A DNA stretch of 25,060 nt from Candidatus Moraniibacteriota bacterium (GCA_018399935.1 JAGYNP010000010.1:1-25060); one strand, 5' to 3'; positions 2 to 24,975 are shown, numbered from the stretch's first letter. A program made the numbers and translations. Notes: generated by a model not told the origin, from the sequence alone.

Positions 2-1249
2 TCTGATAGAATTTATCTTTCTGATGATAATGTATTAATTTCATCTGTTGAGTTAGGAATGGCTAATCAATACATTAGAGATTTAAGCAAAAATGTCAGA
101 AGAGGAATTAAATCAAAATTAGAAAAAGGAATTTGGCCAAGTGGCGCTCCAGTTGGTTATAAAAACGAGAATAAAGAAATTGTAATTGATAAAGAAAAAG
201 CAAAATATATTAAAAAAGCTTTTATTTTATATTCAAAAGGAGGGCATAGCCTAAAAGAACTAACTGATCTTTTGTTTGAAGAAGGTTTTAGGTCAAAAGG
301 TGGTGGAAGATATTATAAAAGTAGTATTTACAAGATCCTTACCAACACTTTTTATTATGGATTAATGTTAAATAAAGAAAATTATTATCAAGGAATCCAT
401 AAACCGATTATCCCTAAAGAGGTTTTTGATAAAGTTCAATTAGTTCTTCAAGGCAAAAGTCAAACCAGAAGAAAAAAACATTTTTTCACTTATCGAGGAT
501 TGTTGTATTGTGAAAAATGCGGTTGTCTTTTAACTGCTACTACCAAAAAGGGCTACAACTATTATTATTGCACCAATGGAAAAAGAAATTGTGATGAACA
601 CAAAAAATATTTAAGAGAAGAATTAATTGAAAAGATTTTAGCTAATTCTTTGAATAAATTAAAAATGAATTCTGAAATGATTGAAATTCTTTATCAATCA
701 GCTAAGGAAAAAATGGATTTAAATAGAAATTACAAAGAAGATATTAAAAAAACTCTCCTGAATCAATTAAAACAGGTTGATATCAAGCAAGAAAGACTTT
801 TAGAGGGTTACTGCTCAGAAATTATTTCCAAAGACGCCTACAAGCAAAAAGAACAACTTTTGCAAAAAGAAAAAGCGGAACTGAAACTTCAAATTGATAA
901 AATCAAGAATAAAACAATTAGAGATGGTGCTACTTTGGAACGGACAAAAAAACTCTTTTTAAAGGCTTGTTATGCGAAAAAAGAATTTTTACAAGCCCAA
1001 AAAGAAGGAAAAACAAAAACGCTCCAAATTTTACTTTGGAACGCTACTGTTCAAAATCGAGAATTGGCTACAGTTAGCTTCAAACCAGAATTCCAGTTGA
1101 TAGCTAATGAGCCAAATAAGACCAATTTTGAGATAATGCGGAGGCGAGAGGATTCGAACCCCTGGTCCGCGTTAACAGACTACGGTTTTCAAGACCGTTG
1201 CTTTCGACCGCTCAGCCACGCCTCCAATAATATTTTTTACGAACTTTAA
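2..1249 (+). CDS. Large serine recombinase/integrase (recombinase + Zn-ribbon + coiled-coil), 5'-truncated by the window edge
   Basis: Frame is open from base 2 (SDRIYLSDDNVLISSVELG-MANQYIRDLSKNVRRG), so the track start at 59 is internal. Motifs G.WPSGAPVGY, ILTNTFYYG, G.HKPII, TYRGLLYCEKCG and YYYC are typical of large serine recombinases. Confidence 0.9.
   Translation, partial: SDRIYLSDDNVLISSVELGMANQYIRDLSKNVRRGIKSKLEKGIWPSGAPVGYKNENKEIVIDKEKAKYIKKAFILYSKGGHSLKELTDLLFEEGFRSKGGGRYYKSSIYKILTNTFYYGLMLNKENYYQGIHKPIIPKEVFDKVQLVLQGKSQTRRKKHFFTYRGLLYCEKCGCLLTATTKKGYNYYYCTNGKRNCDEHKKYLREELIEKILANSLNKLKMNSEMIEILYQSAKEKMDLNRNYKEDIKKTLLNQLKQVDIKQERLLEGYCSEIISKDAYKQKEQLLQKEKAELKLQIDKIKNKTIRDGATLERTKKLFLKACYAKKEFLQAQKEGKTKTLQILLWNATVQNRELATVSFKPEFQLIANEPNKTNFEIMRRREDSNPWSALTDYGFQDRCFRPLSHASNNIFYEL
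1139..1225 (-). tRNA. tRNA-Ser(UGA), CCA not encoded
   Basis: Reverse complement folds: acceptor GGAGGCG/CGCCTCC, anticodon arm ACGGT-CTTGAAA-ACCGT, long variable arm, T loop TTCGAAT, discriminator G. Confidence 0.97.
1139..1225. mobile_element. Probable right junction (att site) of an element integrated at the tRNA-Ser 3' end; the element body lies left of the window
   Basis: The recombinase gene points into and overlaps the tRNA 3' end. The matching direct repeat is not visible in this window. Confidence 0.55.
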
Positions 1250-1341
1250 ATTAGTATAAATTCGTTACGAAATTTTAAAATCTTGTGAAATTTTACGATT
1301 CCTGCATCTATAAAAGAACTTCTAATCAAAAAGCTATAGTG

Positions 1342-1425
1342 TGCCTGGGGCGGGACTTGAACCCGCACAAGATAAATCTTAAGGGATTTTAAGTCCCTCG
1401 TGTCTACCAGTTCCACCACCCAGGC
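1342..1425 (-). tRNA. tRNA-Leu(UAA), CCA not encoded
   Basis: Acceptor GCCTGGG/CCCAGGC, anticodon arm AGGGA-CTTAAAA-TCCCT, variable arm, T arm GCGGG-TTCAAGT-CCCGC. Confidence 0.97.
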
Positions 1426-1588
1426 TATTTTGTTAAGGTTTCAATATCCGGAACACTTTTTTATCAAAATTAAAATAACTCACTCATTGTGCGATTAAGC
1501 ACATCTTGCTTGTCATTTTAATTTTTTCTCAAATTGTTCTCAATTATTTAAACATCGTCAGTCTATCAGAATTTCTAACGAATTTCTG

Positions 1589-1659
1589 AGGTCCGGAGCG
1601 GAATTGAACCGCTGTACAAGGTTTTGCAGACCTTTGCCTAACCACTCGGCCACCGGACC
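1589..1659 (-). tRNA. tRNA-Cys(GCA), CCA not encoded
   Basis: Acceptor GGTCCGG/CCGGACC, anticodon arm AAGGT-CTGCAAA-ACCTT, T arm AGCGG-TTCAATT-CCGCT, discriminator U. Confidence 0.97.
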
Positions 1660-17159: not shown

Positions 17160-18287
17160 CTAAAAATATTTTCTAAGAATTTTTTCTCTTTTCTTTTTTT
17201 CTTCCAAACTTACATCATTTTCAAGTTTAAAAGAGGTGGTGCCAGGGCGAGGGGAATATTTATTGATATAGGCTTTGAAAAATGAAATTAACTTGAAAAC
17301 TTTAACAGTTTCTTGAAAATCTTTTTCGGTTTCTCCAGGGAAACCAACAATTACATCAGTAGAAAATTTAATTTTCGGAATTTTTTTCTGAGTTTTTTTA
17401 ATTAAATTTAAATAATGTTTTTGAGTGTAGAGGCGGTTCATGGCTTTAAGTATTTTGTCACTTCCAGATTGTATTGGAAGATGAATTTCTCGAGAAATAT
17501 TTTTATTATTAGCGATAACCTCAATTAGTTTATCGGAATAGTCTTTAGGGTGAGAAGTTAAAAAGTTAAATTTAATTGAAGGAAATTTTTTAGCAAGAGT
17601 GTCCAATAAATTTGGAAAGGTTATTTTTTTATCATTAAACGAGTTGACATTTTGACCTAACAAAGTAATTTTTTGATATTTTTTATTTGAGAGATATTGA
17701 ACTTCATTCAAAATATCCTTAAAAGATCTGGACCATTCTCGACCTCGAGCATAAGGAACGATACAATATGAACAAAAATTATTACAACCAGTCATAATAG
17801 GAACTAAGGCCGAGGTCTTTTTCTCATATTTAGGTTTAATTTTAAGGTAGTTGTTTCTTTTATAATTCTTTGATATATAAGAATGATCTGTTGAGGTTAT
17901 ATAAGTATCTTTATAATTATTTGTTTTATTGTTATTCGATAATTTTAATTTTTTGTTTTTTTTTAGAAAGTCTAAAATTTGAGGAAAATTTTCAATTGAA
18001 ACAAAAAGATCAACTTTTTTTTCTAATTTTTGTCTAAAATTTTTGCGATAAACTAAACAACCAGTAACTATAATGGCTTTCTCAGGATTTTTTTTGAAAA
18101 CATTATGGATTTGGCCATAAACTCTGTCTTCAGCTGTTTGTCGAATTCCGCAAGTATTGAAAATTATTAAATTAGCCTGTTTTATTTTAGACGTTGATTT
18201 GAAATTATTTTTTTCGATAAAAGTTGCTATTCGTTCTGAATCAGAAAAGTTCATTTGGCAACCGAAAGTACGGATAAAATAGTTCAT
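17160..18287 (-). CDS. miaB: MiaB-type tRNA methylthiotransferase (radical SAM), lacking the C-terminal TRAM domain
   Basis: TFGCQMN.SDSE, NTCGIR..AE.R, TGC (UPF0004 cluster Cys), GCNNFCSYC, LLGQNVNS, SHP, HLPIQSGS, VGFPGET, YSPRPGT. Confidence 0.9.
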   Translation of the reverse strand: MNYFIRTFGCQMNFSDSERIATFIEKNNFKSTSKIKQANLIIFNTCGIRQTAEDRVYGQIHNVFKKNPEKAIIVTGCLVYRKNFRQKLEKKVDLFVSIENFPQILDFLKKNKKLKLSNNNKTNNYKDTYITSTDHSYISKNYKRNNYLKIKPKYEKKTSALVPIMTGCNNFCSYCIVPYARGREWSRSFKDILNEVQYLSNKKYQKITLLGQNVNSFNDKKITFPNLLDTLAKKFPSIKFNFLTSHPKDYSDKLIEVIANNKNISREIHLPIQSGSDKILKAMNRLYTQKHYLNLIKKTQKKIPKIKFSTDVIVGFPGETEKDFQETVKVFKLISFFKAYINKYSPRPGTTSFKLENDVSLEEKKKREKILRKYF

Positions 18288-18527: not shown

Positions 18528-20288
18528 TTATTTTTTTAGTTTAATTTCATTTTCAATTAATTCTAAGAATTCATCAATTTTTATAATTTTTTGTTCTTTA
18601 TTATTTCTTTTTCTAATTGTTACTAAATTATCTTTCTCTTCTTTTTTTCCTGCAATTAAAATATAAGGAATTTTTAATTTAGTTGATTCAGCAATTCTTT
18701 TTCCGAGTGAATCATCAGAATTAAATAATTTAACTCGGTAATCTTGTTTTTTTAGTTTGGCAAAAACTTTTTTGGAATACTTATCAAATTTTTCAGATAC
18801 TGGTAGAATTCCGATTTGAATTGGAGCAATCCAAAGAGGGAAGTTTCCAGCGTAATATTCAATTAAGAAAGCAAAAAATCTTTCAAAAGATCCAATCAAA
18901 GCTCGATGAATTACAAAAGGGCGTTCTTTCTCTCCATCTTTATTGATGAAATTTAAATCAAATCTTTTTGGTAAGTTGAAATCTATTTGAATAGTTGAAA
19001 TTGAATCTTCTTTTCCAAATACATTAATGGCCTGAACATCGATTTTAGGTCCATAAAAAGCAGCCTCACCTTTTTCTTCGTAGAAATCAACTTTTGATTC
19101 TTCGAGAACTTCTCGCATAATATTTTCAGTTTTTTCCCAATCCTTTTTCTTTCCAACATATTTTTCTTTTTCATTATCCGAGAGGGAAAGTCGGAATTTG
19201 TAGTTTTTGAATCCGAGATCTTTGTAGAATTTTAAAAGCATTTCTAAGACTTCAATAAATTCAGTTTTGAGTTGATCCGAAGTACAAAAAATATGGGCAT
19301 CATTTTGAGTAAAACCTCTGACTCTTTGAAGTCCATGAAGTTCGCCGGATTTTTCATATCGATAAACTGTCCCAAATTCTCCCATTTTAATAGGCATTTC
19401 ACGATAGCTTTTTGGTTTCAGTTTGTATACCAGCATTGTAGCAGGGCAGTTCATTGGTTTTAAGTAAAAGATTTCATTATCAATTTTCATTGGGGAATAC
19501 ATAGATTTATTGTAAAATCCAAGATGGCCAGAAGTTTCAAATAACTTTTTCTTGTTGATATGGGGAGTTAAAATATGTTCATATCCGTAGCTTCTTTCCA
19601 TTTTTAACATATAATCTTCTAAAACTCTTCTCATTGCATAACCTTTTGGTAACCAAACTGGAAGACCCTGTCCAATTTCTGAAATATTGGCAAAAAGTTC
19701 TAATTTTTTTCCAATTATTTGATGATTTCTTTTTTTAGCTTCTTCTAAGTTAAATAAATATTTTTTTAAATTTTTTTTATTATTAAAAACCGTTCCATAA
19801 ATTCTTTGAAGCATTGGATTTTTTTCATTTCCTTTCCAATATGCTCCAGAAATAGAAATTAATTTAAAAGCTTGAGCATCTACTTCACCGGTTGATTCGA
19901 GATGTGGGCCGCTGCAAAGATCAATAAAATTTCCTGATTTATAAACCAGAACTTTTTTCTTTCCTTCTTTTATTAAGTCTTCAATAAGTTCTATTTTATA
20001 AGTTTGGTTTAGTTTTCTAAATTTTTCTAAAGCTTTTTCGGTGGAAATAGCTTTTTTTTCAAAAGGAAAGTTGGCTTTAATAATTTTTTTCATTTCTTTT
20101 TCTAACAAAGCTAAATCTTCTGGAATTAAAGTTCTAGGAAGTTCAAAGTCATAATAAAAACCATCGTCAGTAGCCGGACCAATAGCGAACTTAGCTTCTG
20201 GAAAAAAATTTAAAACTGCTGTTGCTAAAATATGAGCAGTACTGTGACGAAGAATATTAATCTTCTCAATTTTCTTATCATTTTGCAT
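18528..20288 (-). CDS. thrS: Threonyl-tRNA synthetase (no N-terminal TGS domain)
   Basis: RHSTAH and DLCSGPH editing motifs, KPMNCP, RYEKSGELHGL.RVRGFTQNDAH, FYGPKID, STIQ.DF, IHRA..GS.ERF, anticodon-binding domain. Confidence 0.99.
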   Translation of the reverse strand: MQNDKKIEKINILRHSTAHILATAVLNFFPEAKFAIGPATDDGFYYDFELPRTLIPEDLALLEKEMKKIIKANFPFEKKAISTEKALEKFRKLNQTYKIELIEDLIKEGKKKVLVYKSGNFIDLCSGPHLESTGEVDAQAFKLISISGAYWKGNEKNPMLQRIYGTVFNNKKNLKKYLFNLEEAKKRNHQIIGKKLELFANISEIGQGLPVWLPKGYAMRRVLEDYMLKMERSYGYEHILTPHINKKKLFETSGHLGFYNKSMYSPMKIDNEIFYLKPMNCPATMLVYKLKPKSYREMPIKMGEFGTVYRYEKSGELHGLQRVRGFTQNDAHIFCTSDQLKTEFIEVLEMLLKFYKDLGFKNYKFRLSLSDNEKEKYVGKKKDWEKTENIMREVLEESKVDFYEEKGEAAFYGPKIDVQAINVFGKEDSISTIQIDFNLPKRFDLNFINKDGEKERPFVIHRALIGSFERFFAFLIEYYAGNFPLWIAPIQIGILPVSEKFDKYSKKVFAKLKKQDYRVKLFNSDDSLGKRIAESTKLKIPYILIAGKKEEKDNLVTIRKRNNKEQKIIKIDEFLELIENEIKLKK

Positions 20289-20352: not shown

Positions 20353-20424
20353 AAAACAAAAACCCCATCTTAAAAATAATTCAAAGTAAATTTAAACAAT
20401 GAATAATTTCTAAGACGAGGTTTT
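20353..20424 (-). terminator. Attenuator terminator of the thrS leader
   Basis: Minus strand AAAACCUCGUCUUAGAAAUUAUUC ... GAAUUAUUUUUAAGAUGGGGUUUU followed by UGUUUU; its 5' arm contains the antiterminator 3' strand. Confidence 0.8.
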
Positions 20425-20646
20425 AAATAGTAATTTTTCCGAATTTTTTTATTTGTTCTATCTGTCAGAGTGGAAAAATAATATTTATAAATAATTTTTT
20501 TATCCCGCGGTTCCACTTAGATTTCTCCTTTATTTTAATAGAAAATTTTGGAGACAACTTTCTTATTAATAACTTAGTCAAGAATTTATCTTGAATTTCA
20601 TTTTTGAAATATATGTTTGGTGGACATATCAATCGTTATAAGAACT
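20353..20646 (-). ncRNA. T-box riboswitch (Thr) upstream of thrS
   Basis: T-box bulge UGGAACC (20515-20509) flanked by CUAAG and GCGGG, which pair with CUCGU-CUUAG (20419-20410). Stem III UCUCC/GGAGA. 5' hairpin AUAUGU-CCACCAA-ACAUAU with Thr codon ACC (20621-20619). Mutually exclusive terminator downstream. Confidence 0.82.
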
Positions 20647-20652
20647 AATAAT

Positions 20653-20680
20653 ATTATAAAACTAATTAAATAGTTGTCAA
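20653..20680 (-). promoter_or_regulatory. Sigma70 promoter for the thrS leader
   Basis: TTGACA (20680-20675), 16 nt, TATAAT (20658-20653); predicted TSS about 20646, just before Stem I. Confidence 0.85.
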
Positions 20681-20696
20681 GAGTCTCTTTTTTTTG

Positions 20697-20725
20697 TTGA
20701 CTTTTTTATTTATTGGGTATATATT
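20697..20725 (+). promoter_or_regulatory. Divergent sigma70 promoter for the DUF5320 gene
   Basis: TTGACT (20697-20702), 17 nt, TATATT (20720-20725). Confidence 0.65.
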
Positions 20726-20777
20726 CAAAATAATAATAATTAAATTTTTATATGAAAAAAGAAGGGAGGTGTTATTT

Positions 20778-21011
20778 ATGCCAAGAAGAGATCAGACGGG
20801 TCCAGAAGGAATGGGACCAATGACAGGTAGAGGTTTAGGTCGTTGTGCTGGTAGAGGTTCTTCTCAAAAAAGGAGCGGTTTTTTTGGAAGGAATAGGAGA
20901 GTTTTAGATTCAACAGATGAAGAAAGAAAGAAAATTTTAGAAAAAGAAGTTGAATCTAAAAGAGAGGAATTAGAAGAGTTGAATAGAGAATTATCTGACA
21001 TTGATAAATAA
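20778..21011 (+). CDS. DUF5320-family small protein (77 aa)
   Basis: MPRRDQTGPEGMGPMTGRGLGRC N-terminus, Gly/Arg linker, C-terminal coiled coil; strong GGAGGTG RBS fixes the start at 20778. Confidence 0.85.
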   Translation: MPRRDQTGPEGMGPMTGRGLGRCAGRGSSQKRSGFFGRNRRVLDSTDEERKKILEKEVESKREELEELNRELSDIDK

Positions 21012-21023
21012 TGTTAATAAAAT

Positions 21024-21057
21024 CAAAAAACTACTCTGTTTTTTGGGTAGTTTTTTG
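21024..21057. terminator. Intrinsic terminator-like hairpin
   Basis: CAAAAAACTAC ... GTAGTTTTTTG, 11-bp arms. Confidence 0.7.
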
Positions 21058-21082
21058 TCTTAATAATTAGAAATTAAAAAAA

Positions 21083-21358
21083 ATGTCAAGGCCGAGATTA
21101 AAAAGAAGATTGAGATTTAAGCCATCTGTTTGTTATTATAAGCCACGGGGTATTCCTTTGTGTCAACTAAAAGAAGTTAATATTAGTAGAGAAGAATTAG
21201 AAGCAATTAAATTAAAAGATTATGATAATTTAAGTCAAGAACAAGCAGCTTTGGAAATGAAAGTTTCTCAAAGTACTTTTCAAAGAATTTTATATTTAGC
21301 CAGAGTTAAGATTGCGGAGGGTATTGTAGAAGGAAGAGCTTTTAGAATTGAAAAATAA
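21083..21358 (+). CDS. DUF134 (UPF0251) predicted DNA-binding protein
   Basis: MSRPR..R, YYKPRG, EELEAIKL.DY..L.QE.AA..M.VSQSTF.RIL..AR.KIAE..VEG. Confidence 0.9.
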   Translation: MSRPRLKRRLRFKPSVCYYKPRGIPLCQLKEVNISREELEAIKLKDYDNLSQEQAALEMKVSQSTFQRILYLARVKIAEGIVEGRAFRIEK

Positions 21359-21375: not shown

Positions 21376-24300
21376 TTACAAAACATTAACATTTTCTTTG
21401 TTAATAATTTTTTCAAATTTCTTGATTAAATTTTTGCTATATTTAATTTTTATAGGTAATTCTAATTTTTTACTTCCTCCTTCAGTTGTCAGAAATATTT
21501 TACTGTCGCCTTTTTCGGAGTCTTTGATTAATTGATAAATTAAGTTTAAGTTTTTTTGAGCATTTGTTTTAATTAAGTGAAGGGTTATATTTTTTATTTT
21601 TTCAACATTGGCTTGATTACTATTGCTGTTATTACTGCTATTGTTGTTAAATCCATTATTAAATCCACCTATACTAAAATTAGTTTTTTTACCTTCTTTT
21701 CTAAATTTTTTTAGTTCTTCATTATCAACTGGATTGACTTCTTCGCAAAGTAGTTTGTATTCACCGTCTTTATCGGAGAGTTTGCCTTTGATTAAAACTA
21801 TTTTTTCTTCTTGCCATATTTCTGGATTTTCTTCTAATGTTTTAGGGAAAACTAAAACTTCCATTTTTCCTATTCCATCTTCTATTGTGTTAAACATCAT
21901 TAATTTGTTTCTACGGGTATAAATTTTATGAATTTTAGTTATTATTCCTCCTAAAACTATACTTTGGTTAATTAAACCACTGTGAAGATTTCGAATAGGA
22001 GTAGCATGAGCAGAAAAATAATCTTGATAGTTTCTAAGAGGATGATCAGAAACATATAATCCTAGTAATTCTTTTTCCCAGGATAATAATATTCTATCAG
22101 AAGCTGGTTTAACTTCAGTAAAAGTTATTTTTGGGGTTTCTGTTTGACTTTGATTGTTTTCATTAGTTAGACCAAAAAGAGAAGTTTGACCAGAGGCTAC
22201 TGTTTTGTGGTATTGTTTAGCATAGCCTAAAAGTAATTCTACATTTTCTAATAATTTATTTCTTTCTATTAAATTTCCAAGTGCTCCAGATTTTCCAAGT
22301 GCCTCTAATGATTTTTTGTTCATATCTCTGGATTCAATTCTTTCAATAAAGTCAATTATATCTTTATAGTGGCCATTTTTCTTTCTTTCTTTAATGATTT
22401 CGTTTGCAATTTTACTTCCGACTCCTTTAATAGCTTCTAATCCAAATCTAATTTTTGGTAAAGTTTCTGTTTTTGAATTAGCTCGTTTTTTAATTTTTTC
22501 TATTTCTTCAAGATTGTTTGTTATCACTGCAAATTCGTGCAAACTTTCATTAACATCAGGTGGTAAAACCTCAATTCCCATTTGTCGAGCTTCTTCAATT
22601 TCAATAGCAATTCTATCAGTATCATCTTTATCGGAGTTTAAAAGAGCTGCCATAAATTGAGTTGGATAATGAGCTTTTAAAAAAGCTGTTTGATAACCAA
22701 TTAAAGCATAGCAAGCAGCATGACTACGATTAAAACCATAGCCAGCAAAAGGTTCAATGAATGAAAAAACTTTTTCAGCTAAAGTTCTGTTAATTTTGTT
22801 TTTAACGCATCCTTCAATAAATTTCTTTTTTTGTTCTTGGATCATTTCGTGAATTTTTTTACCCATAGCTTTCCGTAAAATATCTGCTTCTCCAGGGGTA
22901 AAACCAGCTAATTCACGAGCAATTTGCATTACTTGTTCTTGGTAAACGGCTACTCCATAAGTATTTTTTAAAATTGGTTTAAGCTTTGGGTGAAGGTATT
23001 CAATTCTTTTCGTACCATGTTTACCACCAATAAAATCGGGAATCCATTCCATTGGTCCTGGTCTGTATAAAGCTACTATTGCAATAATATCCTCAAAGAC
23101 AGTTGGTTTTAATAATTTTAAATATCTTTTCATTCCCGATGACTCTAACTGAAAAACTCCTGTTGTATCACCACGTTGAAGAAGTTTGAAGGTTTTCTTA
23201 TCTTTTATTGATAAATTATCTATATCAATTATATCTCCAGTGGTTTTTTTAATTATCTTTAAAGCATTTTGAATAATGGTTAGATTTTTTAATCCTAAAA
23301 AATCCATTTTAACCAAACCAATTTTTTCAATATAAGAAGATTTAGAAGAAGCGTTGTATTGTGTTACTACTCCTTGATCTTCTTTTCCAACCATATATTG
23401 TAAGGGAGTATATTCAACTACTGGTTCGGGTGTTATTACTACTCCACAGGCATGAACTGAGGCGTGACGAGCTACGCCTTCCAATTTCAAAGCAGCATCT
23501 AAAATAGTTTTAGCATCGTCATTTTTTTGATACTCATTTTTTAGTTCGGTTGATTTTTCTAAGGCATCAGGAAGTTTAGTAAAATCAGGGACCATTTTTG
23601 ATAATTTATCACAATAAGCATATTCAAAGCCTAAAACTCTTCCAGCGTCTCGAATGGCTGCTTTAGCTGCCATAGTTCCAAAGGTAATAATTTGAGCTAC
23701 ATGATCACGACCAAATTTATTTCGAACATATTCCAAAACATCATCTCGTCGATCATCTGGAAAATCTAAATCGATATCAGGTAAAGATATTCTGTCTGGA
23801 TTTAAAAATCTTTCAAATAATAAATTGAACTCAATTGGATCTAGATTAGTAATTCTAGTTAAATAGGCAATAATACTTCCAGCAGCACTTCCTCGACCTG
23901 GTCCAACAATAATCCCATTATCTTTAGCCCAAGCAACGAAATCTTGAACAATTAAAAAATAACCAGCAAACCCCATTTTTTCGATTACACTTAGTTCATA
24001 TTTCAGTCTTTTTCTATGAACTTCGTTAATGTTTTTACCATAACGTTCTTTTAAGCCTTTTTCACAAAGTTTTTTTAAATAAGTTTGAGGAGTGTGATTT
24101 TCAGGAACTTCATAATTTGGTAATTTATGATTATCAAATTCGATTTCGACTTTACAACGATCGGCAATTTTTTGAGTATTTTCTAGTGCTTCGGGTATAT
24201 CACTGAAGGCTTCATACATTTCTTCTTTACTTCTTAAATGAAGTGGAAATTCTTTCATCGAAAACCTGTTTGTGTCAGTTACTTTTTTGCCAGTTTGAAG

Positions 24301-24975
24301 ACACATTAAAATATCTTGAACAGCTCCATCGTCTTTATTGACATAGTGAACATCTGCTGTGGCTACTAATGGAATGTTAGTTTTTTTAGCTATCTTTTTT
24401 AATCCTTTATTGGCTAAAACTTGTTTTTCAAGTTGAGGAAGATGCTGAAGTTCTAAGAAGTAATTATTTTTGCCTAAAATACTTTGGTATTCCAAGGCTT
24501 TTTTTTCAGCTTCTTTTATTTTATTGTTAATAACTAATTGTGATATTTCTCCTTGAACACATCCACTACAACCAATTAAACCTTTGGAATATTTTTTTAG
24601 TATTTTTAAATCAATTCGTGGTTTATAATAGAAACCCTTTAAATGAGCTTCAGTTGTCAATTTCATTAAATTTTGATAGCCTTGATTATTTTCTGCTAGT
24701 AAAATTAAATGAAAACGATCTTCATCAACTCGGGGTTTCTTATTCTCAAGACCATTAGGTGCAACATAAAACTCGCAACCAATAATTGGTTTTATTCCAG
24801 CTTTTTTGGCTTTTAAATAAAATTCAATTACTCCATACATTGTTCCATGATCAGTAATGGCTAAAGAATTCATTTTGTATTCTTTAGCTTTTTCTAAAAG
24901 ATCGTCAATTTTTCCTAGTCCATCTAATAAGCTATAGTGAGTATGAACATGTAAATGAGTGAATTTTTTATCCAC
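21376..24975 (-). CDS. dnaE: DNA polymerase III alpha subunit
   Basis: PHP domain (HLHVHTHYSLLDG, AITDHG), GPGRGSAAGS, FERFLNPDR, PDIDLDF, KMDFLGL, GVFQLES, YGFNRSHA, OB fold, C-terminal domain; no intein-sized insertion. Confidence 0.99.
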   Translation of the reverse strand: MDKKFTHLHVHTHYSLLDGLGKIDDLLEKAKEYKMNSLAITDHGTMYGVIEFYLKAKKAGIKPIIGCEFYVAPNGLENKKPRVDEDRFHLILLAENNQGYQNLMKLTTEAHLKGFYYKPRIDLKILKKYSKGLIGCSGCVQGEISQLVINNKIKEAEKKALEYQSILGKNNYFLELQHLPQLEKQVLANKGLKKIAKKTNIPLVATADVHYVNKDDGAVQDILMCLQTGKKVTDTNRFSMKEFPLHLRSKEEMYEAFSDIPEALENTQKIADRCKVEIEFDNHKLPNYEVPENHTPQTYLKKLCEKGLKERYGKNINEVHRKRLKYELSVIEKMGFAGYFLIVQDFVAWAKDNGIIVGPGRGSAAGSIIAYLTRITNLDPIEFNLLFERFLNPDRISLPDIDLDFPDDRRDDVLEYVRNKFGRDHVAQIITFGTMAAKAAIRDAGRVLGFEYAYCDKLSKMVPDFTKLPDALEKSTELKNEYQKNDDAKTILDAALKLEGVARHASVHACGVVITPEPVVEYTPLQYMVGKEDQGVVTQYNASSKSSYIEKIGLVKMDFLGLKNLTIIQNALKIIKKTTGDIIDIDNLSIKDKKTFKLLQRGDTTGVFQLESSGMKRYLKLLKPTVFEDIIAIVALYRPGPMEWIPDFIGGKHGTKRIEYLHPKLKPILKNTYGVAVYQEQVMQIARELAGFTPGEADILRKAMGKKIHEMIQEQKKKFIEGCVKNKINRTLAEKVFSFIEPFAGYGFNRSHAACYALIGYQTAFLKAHYPTQFMAALLNSDKDDTDRIAIEIEEARQMGIEVLPPDVNESLHEFAVITNNLEEIEKIKKRANSKTETLPKIRFGLEAIKGVGSKIANEIIKERKKNGHYKDIIDFIERIESRDMNKKSLEALGKSGALGNLIERNKLLENVELLLGYAKQYHKTVASGQTSLFGLTNENNQSQTETPKITFTEVKPASDRILLSWEKELLGLYVSDHPLRNYQDYFSAHATPIRNLHSGLINQSIVLGGIITKIHKIYTRRNKLMMFNTIEDGIGKMEVLVFPKTLEENPEIWQEEKIVLIKGKLSDKDGEYKLLCEEVNPVDNEELKKFRKEGKKTNFSIGGFNNGFNNNSSNNSNSNQANVEKIKNITLHLIKTNAQKNLNLIYQLIKDSEKGDSKIFLTTEGGSKKLELPIKIKYSKNLIKKFEKIINKENVNVL

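Follow-up and report, generated by a model that had tools for sequence, protein, structure and literature searches.

An Unannotated T-box Variant With an Apical Threonine Codon and a Predicted Terminator Precedes thrS in a Candidatus Moraniibacteriota Bacterium and Its Relatives

Introduction

Transcriptional T-box riboswitches are said to need a long Stem I, which binds the tRNA elbow, for fast tRNA capture (PMC7583486). In the canonical class I leaders (RF00230; B. subtilis thrS, glyQS) this Stem I is ~80–100 nt long. It has a K-turn, carries its specifier in an internal loop with an S-turn, and contacts the tRNA elbow by stacking of an AG bulge and a distal loop. Ultrashort Stems I have been described in the ileS leaders of Actinobacteria, which act on translation and for which Stem II and the IIA/B pseudoknot are essential (PMC7583486, PMC11297988). 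Current models pair a long Stem I with transcriptional control, and a short Stem I with translational control and reliance on Stem II and IIA/B. The short-Stem-I model of TBDB is applied solely to Actinobacteria and to class I matches with a truncated Stem I (PMC7778990). Insertions in helix A2 of the antiterminator do occur in working T-boxes, an example being staphylococcal stem Sa (PMC9177973, PMC7583486).

Here we analyze a thrS leader from Candidatus Moraniibacteriota bacterium, located in a 25,060-nt stretch of DNA (GCA_018399935.1 JAGYNP010000010.1:1-25060), hereafter the window. A sequence-only reading of this DNA had proposed a threonine T-box with an ultrashort Stem I, an apical specifier and a coupled terminator in a probable CPR genome, and had pointed out that a long Stem I is normal in transcriptional T-boxes. 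Full-text literature searches for T-boxes together with CPR, Patescibacteria or Parcubacteria found no description of such a leader, and searches for transcriptional T-boxes with a short Stem I or an apical specifier returned known systems only; transcriptional predictions among the actinobacterial ultrashort ileS leaders are not excluded.

Results

A structured leader follows a consensus promoter upstream of thrS

The features of the leader, its promoter and the gene under its control are listed in Table 1, together with two sister leaders from the same genome. The promoter predicted directly before the leader proved to match the TTGACA/TATAAT consensus at 12/12 positions, and was the top site of the region in a promoter scan. 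Transcription is predicted to start at ~A20646. A TTGACA box also lies upstream of the thrS leaders of relatives, at a comparable distance. The fold of the whole leader was far more stable than that of shuffled sequences (z = −5.0) and this, together with compensatory changes in 92 distinct leaders (see below), places its structure far beyond chance. All the elements listed by the sequence-only reading were found on the minus strand where it had put them, but it had overlooked the closing helix P1 and the 84-nt insert.

Table 1. Positions of the thrS leader elements, the associated promoter and gene, and the sister leaders of the same genome. Positions without a contig prefix are those of the window.
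Feature	Position	Strand	Sequence and remarks
T-box leader	20646-20353	−	upstream of thrS
Sigma-70-type promoter	20653..20680	−	TTGACA 20680-20675, 16-nt spacer, TATAAT 20658-20653
P1 closing helix, 5' strand	20635..20639	−	AUAAC; partner 20573-20569
Junction strand	20630..20634	−	G-AUUG; UUG invariant (alignments A1, A2)
Specifier hairpin (ultrashort Stem I)	20611..20629	−	6 bp AUAUGU/ACAUAU, 7-nt apical loop CCACCAA
Stem I strands	20629-20624, 20616-20611	−	AUAUGU, ACAUAU
Stem I loop	20623-20617	−	CCACCAA
Thr codon	20621-20619	−	ACC, purine next; in apical loop
P2 accessory hairpin	20595..20610	−	AUUUCA-AAAA-UGAAAU
P3 accessory hairpin	20578..20594	−	UCAAGA-UAAAU-UCUUGA; adjoins CUAA
Junction strand	20574..20577	−	CUAA; invariant
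P1 closing helix, 3' strand	20569..20573	−	GUUAU; partner 20639-20635
Linker before Stem III	20564-20555	−	AAGAAAGUUG; purine-rich
Stem III	20524..20554	−	UCUCC, 21-nt loop, GGAGA
T-box core	20504..20520	−	A1 5' strand CUAAG, 7-nt bulge UGGAACC (20515-20509), A2 5' strand GCGGG
Insert in A2 (antiterminator) loop	20420..20503	−	84 nt, A/U-rich; specific to the window's genome
Antiterminator 3' strand	20410..20419	−	CUCGU (with GCGGG), CUUAG (with CUAAG); also within terminator 5' arm
Intrinsic terminator	20353..20424	−	hairpin 20424-20359, arms ACCUCGUCUUAG... and ...UUAAGAUGGGGU; U-tract UUUUUGUUUU 20362-20353
thrS, threonyl-tRNA synthetase	18528..20288	−	586 aa, gene under control; Pfam tRNA_SAD, tRNA-synt_2b, HGTP_anticodon
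Own-genome ileS-type leader	C68:9016-9189 = L001:1501-1674	+	K-turn, 4-bp hairpin, loop CUAUCU (AUC), UGGU, terminator
Own-genome glyS leader	C16:14200-14345 = L002:1501-1646	+	hairpin GAAGA-GAUGGUAAA-UCUUC (GGU in loop), UGGA, terminator

Other features of the window were recorded alongside. Two small ORFs, DUF5320 and DUF134, run divergently from the thrS promoter (20694-21358, plus strand). The DUF5320 ORF is listed from 20694 and has an ATG at 20779 preceded by an AGGGAGG box, whilst that of DUF134 (21083-21358, plus strand) has a sigma-70 region-4-like fold; a promoter-like site matching at 10/12 positions lies by these ORFs at 20697-20725 (plus strand). Upstream of them is the gene for DNA polymerase III alpha (DnaE; 21376-24975, minus strand). 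A MiaB-like radical-SAM methylthiotransferase (UPF0004 and Radical_SAM; 17160-18287, minus strand) is encoded 3' of thrS, and a cluster of three tRNAs, Ser(UGA), Leu(UAA) and Cys(GCA), occupies 1138-1659 (minus strand).

The codon hairpin belongs to a junction closed by a covarying helix

The long Stem I of class I leaders is absent, as had been proposed from the sequence: the codon hairpin measures only 19 nt and is followed by nothing longer than the short accessory hairpins. P1 joins the GAUUG and CUAA strands and encloses the specifier hairpin, P2 and P3, forming a four-way junction. P2, the small AUUUCA/UGAAAU side hairpin already seen in the initial reading, is kept in same-genus leaders and is variable or missing elsewhere. 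P3 had been called a Stem II-like hairpin; a UCAAGA/UCUUGA hairpin does exist there, but it is no Stem II homolog, being instead an arm of the junction closed by P1. Across the leaders, one inner hairpin lies between the specifier hairpin and CUAA in 43 cases and two in 49, and this inner segment folds at −0.245 kcal/mol per nt, compared with −0.11 for shuffles.

The base of the hairpin lacks the UGA...GA clamp of a K-turn, its conserved flanks GAUUG and CUAA being joined by P1. The F-box (CCGUWA) of the IIA/B pseudoknot is also absent from the window leader, whilst an S-turn cannot be judged by sequence alone. With its free positions filled in, the loop reads CUACCAA in 61 of the 92 distinct leaders, CCACCAA in 17 and UUACCAA in 5, and by its letters this 7-mer is anticodon-loop-like.

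Homologous leaders are linked to thrS and covary

ThrRS was located in 60 relatives, and the upstream DNA was read for the 30 best of these loci. A UGGAACC core lay upstream of thrS in 22/30, always with UGGA, and the longer form AGUGGAACCRCG was found in 19/30. ACC stands in the loop of a short hairpin in every one of the 22 core-bearing leaders, which were found via ThrRS without using ACC. In an alignment of 17 leaders that were not selected by pattern (alignment A1), UUG and CUAA were invariant in 17/17.

We then scanned one genome per prokaryote species with a composite pattern of the invariant strands, in which ACC, UGGA, AUUG and CUAA were fixed. Matches were obtained in at least 120 species. 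Among the 80 matches listed, ThrRS was directly downstream in 76/76 testable loci; the remaining four could not be tested, as the record ends within 175 nt of the match. Informative record titles among the matches listed are nearly all Patescibacteria/CPR, which upholds the suspicion that the window comes from a CPR genome. As the pattern fixed these four strings, the 80-locus set shows the thrS link and the covariation but not the conservation of those letters, which rests on the ThrRS-found leaders (22 for ACC and UGGA; the 17 of alignment A1 for UUG and CUAA). The exact composite pattern was found in none of 400 evenly sampled genomes of the phylum, the window's own genome aside, so that the exact junction architecture appears lineage-restricted; looser variants, such as thrS leaders of the K-turn type, would escape this search.

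In 92 distinct leaders the 6-bp specifier stem was 96.6% paired, compared with 52.9 ± 1.8% when the 3' strands were permuted, and the first 4 bp of P1 were 92.9% paired (51.6 ± 2.3% permuted). An independent pair counter applied to a MAFFT alignment gave a covariation score of 1.02, against 0.24 ± 0.015 for shuffles, with 0/500 reaching 1.02, and only 0.06–0.17 when the partners were slid. Both sides had changed in 12/12 pairs, including 6/6 of P1. The proposal that ACC is displayed in a 7-nt apical loop of an ultrashort Stem I was thus sustained, with the codon invariant and the stem covarying.

Two observations concern individual matches. Several TPA metagenome bins (L088, L089, L104, L109, L122, L147 and others) carry a CPR-type thrS leader and a ThrRS 39–46% identical to that of the window, and are titled Gammaproteobacteria, Bdellovibrionales, Acidimicrobiaceae or Nanoarchaeia; these labels are probably wrong. 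At L034 (G013:C8:31424, minus strand), a junction leader of the thrS type, with a long insert within it, lies ~3.2 kb upstream of thrS, and a 342-aa membrane-like ORF separates the two.

Antiterminator and terminator are mutually exclusive

Stem III was confirmed as had been read: a hairpin stands at this position in 92/92 leaders, with differing sequences and a mean dG of −8.8 versus −4.3 for shuffles, and the position agrees with the Rfam consensus Stem III as aligned for sister leaders. At 20518-20504, AAGUGGAACCGCGGG is the conserved T-box sequence, with its 7-nt UGGNACC bulge inside the antiterminator helix, as T-boxes require. Helices A1 and A2 together form 10/10 pairs in the window, and 9–10/10 in 94/97 leaders.

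The terminator has 12/12 arm pairs, a dG of −25.2 kcal/mol and the tail UUUUGUUU. Terminators with a U-rich tail are general among the leaders (median dG −29 kcal/mol); 74/96 meet strict criteria, and most of the others fail on the fixed frame alone. A simple terminator scanner with a loop limit of 8 nt reported no terminator at the leader, because the terminator loop is 16 nt. The view that a UGGAACC antiterminator overlaps a long terminator held up, since the 3' strand of the antiterminator lies inside the 5' arm of the terminator. The two structures exclude each other through this shared strand, a U-tract follows, and the alternation is conserved. The minimum free energy structure, which contains the terminator, was predicted at −43.9 kcal/mol, and the structure with the antiterminator enforced at −22.6; a terminator favored by ~21 kcal/mol is expected of a switch that is off unless tRNA stabilizes the antiterminator.

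If control were instead translational, as in actinobacterial ileS, the long hairpin would be a sequestrator, and the ultrashort-Stem-I T-boxes characterized in reviews are indeed all translational (PMC7583486, PMC11297988). Sequestration of the Shine-Dalgarno sequence is, however, not seen in this leader: 65 nt separate the hairpin, with its terminal UUUUUGUUUU, from the ATG, and the start region is left uncovered. Most of 96 leaders have a U-rich tail after the hairpin, and thrS lies anywhere from ~75 to ~640 nt away from the T-box core. We regard translational control as highly improbable.

The antiterminator loop of the window carries an unusually long insert

A2 loops in 97 leaders measure 3 to 84 nt, about half of them ≤9 nt; this range excludes L130, whose 297-nt assignment is unreliable, with no terminator arm found. 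The insert of the window is the longest reliably assigned, the same position holding 7 nt in the same-genus genomes G003 and G001, and it has no significant fold of its own. A mobile or repeated element was ruled out, as the insert is single copy in the genome. One string within it, UUCCAC (20471-20476, minus strand), is the complement of GUGGAA in the core (20516-20511), so that masking of UGGA is conceivable. This pairing was spotted by eye only, appears in no predicted fold and is not conserved, and was treated as chance.

The insert might have no effect on the switch, or it might hinder formation of the antiterminator in the window's genome. That it postpones transcription of the terminator, and so leaves more time to capture tRNA, is speculation. 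On a more severe reading the T-box would be a crippled one, in which the 84 nt block tRNA-dependent antitermination and thrS is expressed by leaky termination or from another promoter. The record length of the insert, its lack of significant structure and the 21 kcal/mol by which the enforced antiterminator is less stable than the terminator state are all compatible with such a loss. The switching partners are nevertheless intact (antiterminator 10/10, terminator 12/12), thrS is presumably essential, and the best further promoter candidate between the terminator and the thrS ATG matches at only 9/12 positions. Inserts of 43–62 nt are also tolerated in leaders of other species, and A2 insertions are known from working T-boxes (PMC9177973, PMC7583486). 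We consider a crippled T-box unlikely.

The loop codon tracks the gene and the bulge tracks the tRNA

For comparison of loop triplets, all other T-box cores of the window's family were retrieved. The triplets in relatives follow the gene: ACC for thrS, AUC for ileS, GGN for glyS and UGC for cysK. The expectation that, across CPR leaders, the loop codon would track the amino acid was thereby met. The ileS leaders, which precede a type-2-like IleRS, have UGGU and a K-turn-clamped 4-bp hairpin, whose 6-nt loop reads NNAUCN in 15/16, the codon having been left unspecified in the search. Leaders of glyS have UGGA, and their loops contain GGC, GGU or GGA, in which the third position varies and Gly is retained, and those of cysteine synthase have UGGA and the loop AAGCGUGCG with UGC. 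A generic test, for any hairpin loop with a cognate codon and a purine, failed to separate the gene groups (Ile codons occurred in 11/13 glyS leaders), because A/U-rich loops are common. A K-turn-anchored test was effective for ileS but too strict for the mismatch-bearing stems of glyS, the loops of which were read by eye.

The UGGA bulge had been suggested to fit a tRNA ending in U73-CCA, and this is the case for the window's own tRNA-Thr(CGU), which has U73, and for the tRNA-Thr species of the same-genus genome G001. In G001, U73 is found in tRNA-Thr(GGU), Thr(UGU), Gly(GCC) and Cys(GCA) and A73 in tRNA-Ile(GAU), exactly as predicted by the UGGN bulges (UGGA/U73, UGGU/A73). A tRNA-Thr(GGU) with U73, which had been named as a further check, is therefore present in the genus; in the window's own assembly, which is 74% complete, only tRNA-Thr(CGU) was found.

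In E. coli, autoregulation by ThrRS through an anticodon-arm mimic is established. The ACC hairpin could likewise be a protein operator, a tRNA-like anticodon arm bound by ThrRS, with the true specifier elsewhere or absent; the CUACCAA loop has the size of an anticodon loop and a U33/A37-like pattern. We rejected such mimicry because the loop carries the Thr codon and not a Thr anticodon (NGU). Sister loops moreover carry the codon that fits the gene under control (AUC, GGN, UGC), even for cysK, which encodes no synthetase, and in every case the hairpin comes with a T-box core in which UGGN follows the discriminator base. The operator retains hardly any likelihood, and the hairpin is read here as a T-box specifier.

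Sister leaders and comparison with known classes

The Rfam T-box model RF00230 had been suggested as a check and did not recognize the leader: there was no match in the window at the gathering threshold, nor at E ≤ 10 on 561 nt, and at the gathering threshold (93 bits) 0/18 homologous thrS loci were matched. We take this silence as a limit of sensitivity and not as evidence against a T-box.

The two sister leaders of the same genome also score below threshold. The ileS-type leader (68.6 bits, below the 93-bit threshold) has Stem II and IIA/B with an F-box; in the Rfam alignment its K-turn is aligned and 76 Stem I positions are replaced by the 6-nt loop CUAUCU. It precedes a class I synthetase gene of the I/L/M/V family, resembling type-2 IleRS. 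The glyS leader (45 bits) lacks Stem II and precedes GlyRS. A likeness of ACGAU...CCACCA in the thrS leader to actinobacterial ileS had been pointed out. This carries only so far, as there is no K-turn here and the conserved strand is GAUUG; it is the own-genome ileS leader, and not the thrS leader, that closely corresponds to the actinobacterial ultrashort type, though with a terminator.

The thrS junction leader resembles the CPR ileS, glyS and cysK leaders (own genome C68, C16; L035–L079) in its short hairpin, apical codon, terminator, T-box core and lineage. Those leaders keep the K-turn flanks UGA...GGAG, in place of which the thrS type has the GAUUG/CUAA junction. Stem II and the IIA/B F-box are also retained in the ileS and cysK leaders: a string resembling the F-box was present in 15/15 and 6/6 of them, respectively, but in only 6/92 thrS leaders (chance level), the window leader having none. 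More distant thrS leaders (G045, G007, G023, G058) have a 4-bp hairpin that is clamped by a K-turn and whose loop reads NCUAACCAA, and there are thus at least two minimal thrS designs.

Some sister leaders showed further variation. UGC leaders of the form CAAGG-AAGCGUGCG-CCUUG, with UGGA, precede a CysK-like cysteine synthase gene in L050, L061, L063, L067 and L069, and a UGC-type leader precedes a different small membrane-like ORF in L044. In genus g13 (L060, L066, L070) an ileS-type leader (AUC, UGGU) is followed immediately not by ileS but by a conserved 137-aa ORF (MTDYTVLAKFRNK...) of unknown function. The ileS leader of L043 (G006:C10) has UGGC in place of UGGU. Its specifier loop holds an additional small hairpin (GGAG-CCCAUUUGGGGG-AUCA-CUCC), and it looks like an intermediate form of Stem I.

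With canonical class I leaders, including B. subtilis thrS and glyQS, the thrS leader has in common Stem III, the UGGN bulge (here of the UGGA type, pairing with U73), the alternation of antiterminator and terminator, and the control of an aminoacyl-tRNA synthetase gene. In place of the parts of class I Stem I it has a junction of ~70 nt. With the actinobacterial ultrashort ileS leaders (Mycobacterium, Nocardia) it shares a codon in the apical loop of a short hairpin, followed by a purine (PMC7583486, PMC11297988), the lack of AG bulge, distal loop and elbow platform, a canonical discriminator domain and tolerance of A2 insertions. The latter leaders are Ile-specific and translational, with a sequestered Shine-Dalgarno sequence, a K-turn and dependence on a Stem II S-turn and the IIA/B pseudoknot. 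The thrS leader, unlike them, is Thr-specific, has an intrinsic terminator, lacks K-turn flanks and F-box, and carries its hairpin on a P1-closed junction.

Discussion

The leader upstream of thrS is a real, conserved and unannotated T-box variant. We observed its elements, their covariation, the link to thrS, the match of codon to gene and of bulge to discriminator base, and the mutually exclusive helices. Covariation, codon tracking, the U73 fit and the conserved alternation support the initial proposal of a threonine T-box with an ultrashort Stem I, an apical specifier and a coupled terminator in a CPR bacterium. Our preferred reading, to which we assign a probability of roughly 0.85, is that it is a transcription-attenuating T-box riboswitch sensing uncharged tRNA-Thr(GGU).

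Its function as an attenuator is inferred in the absence of experimental or RNA data; among sequencing data we found no RNA run with this locus, but only one freshwater-sediment DNA study. On the proposed mechanism, the RNA would start ~6 nt before P1, and P1, the specifier hairpin, P2 and P3 would fold into the four-way junction, presenting ACC in its 7-nt loop for pairing with the GGU anticodon. After Stem III, the UGGA bulge would pair with U73-CCA, the end left free when tRNA-Thr is uncharged. This pairing is envisaged to stabilize the weak antiterminator (CUAAG/CUUAG, GCGGG/CUCGU), allowing RNA polymerase to read into thrS. With charged tRNA, or with none, the far more stable terminator would form and transcription would stop at the U-tract. 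Binding of tRNA, sensing of its charge, termination in vivo, and compensation by the junction for missing elbow and Stem II contacts are inferences only.

Without a long Stem I, Stem II and IIA/B, a leader might be too slow in binding tRNA unless it makes contacts that are not yet known. The GAUUG/CUAA junction, with its P1 helix, anticodon-loop-like specifier hairpin and either one or two accessory hairpins, may be a self-contained new tRNA-decoding module that replaces both the elbow-binding Stem I platform and Stem II with IIA/B; in the window, the 84-nt insert may also buy time. We hold the odds of this proposal to be even. If it is true, co-transcriptional switching would be achieved by contacts with the anticodon and the acceptor end plus as yet unknown contacts of the junction.

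The current model does not provide for a conserved and widespread leader that lacks all these parts but is coupled to a terminator. Should this leader work in the way read here, it would reduce the known minimum for co-transcriptional sensing of tRNA to a decoding domain of ~70 nt, and would offer a compact part for engineering. It would also reveal a blind spot of annotation, as Rfam and TBDB-style pipelines would miss the class. For the organisms themselves, it would mean that CPR bacteria, with their tiny genomes poor in regulators, retain feedback from tRNA charging on several synthetase genes.
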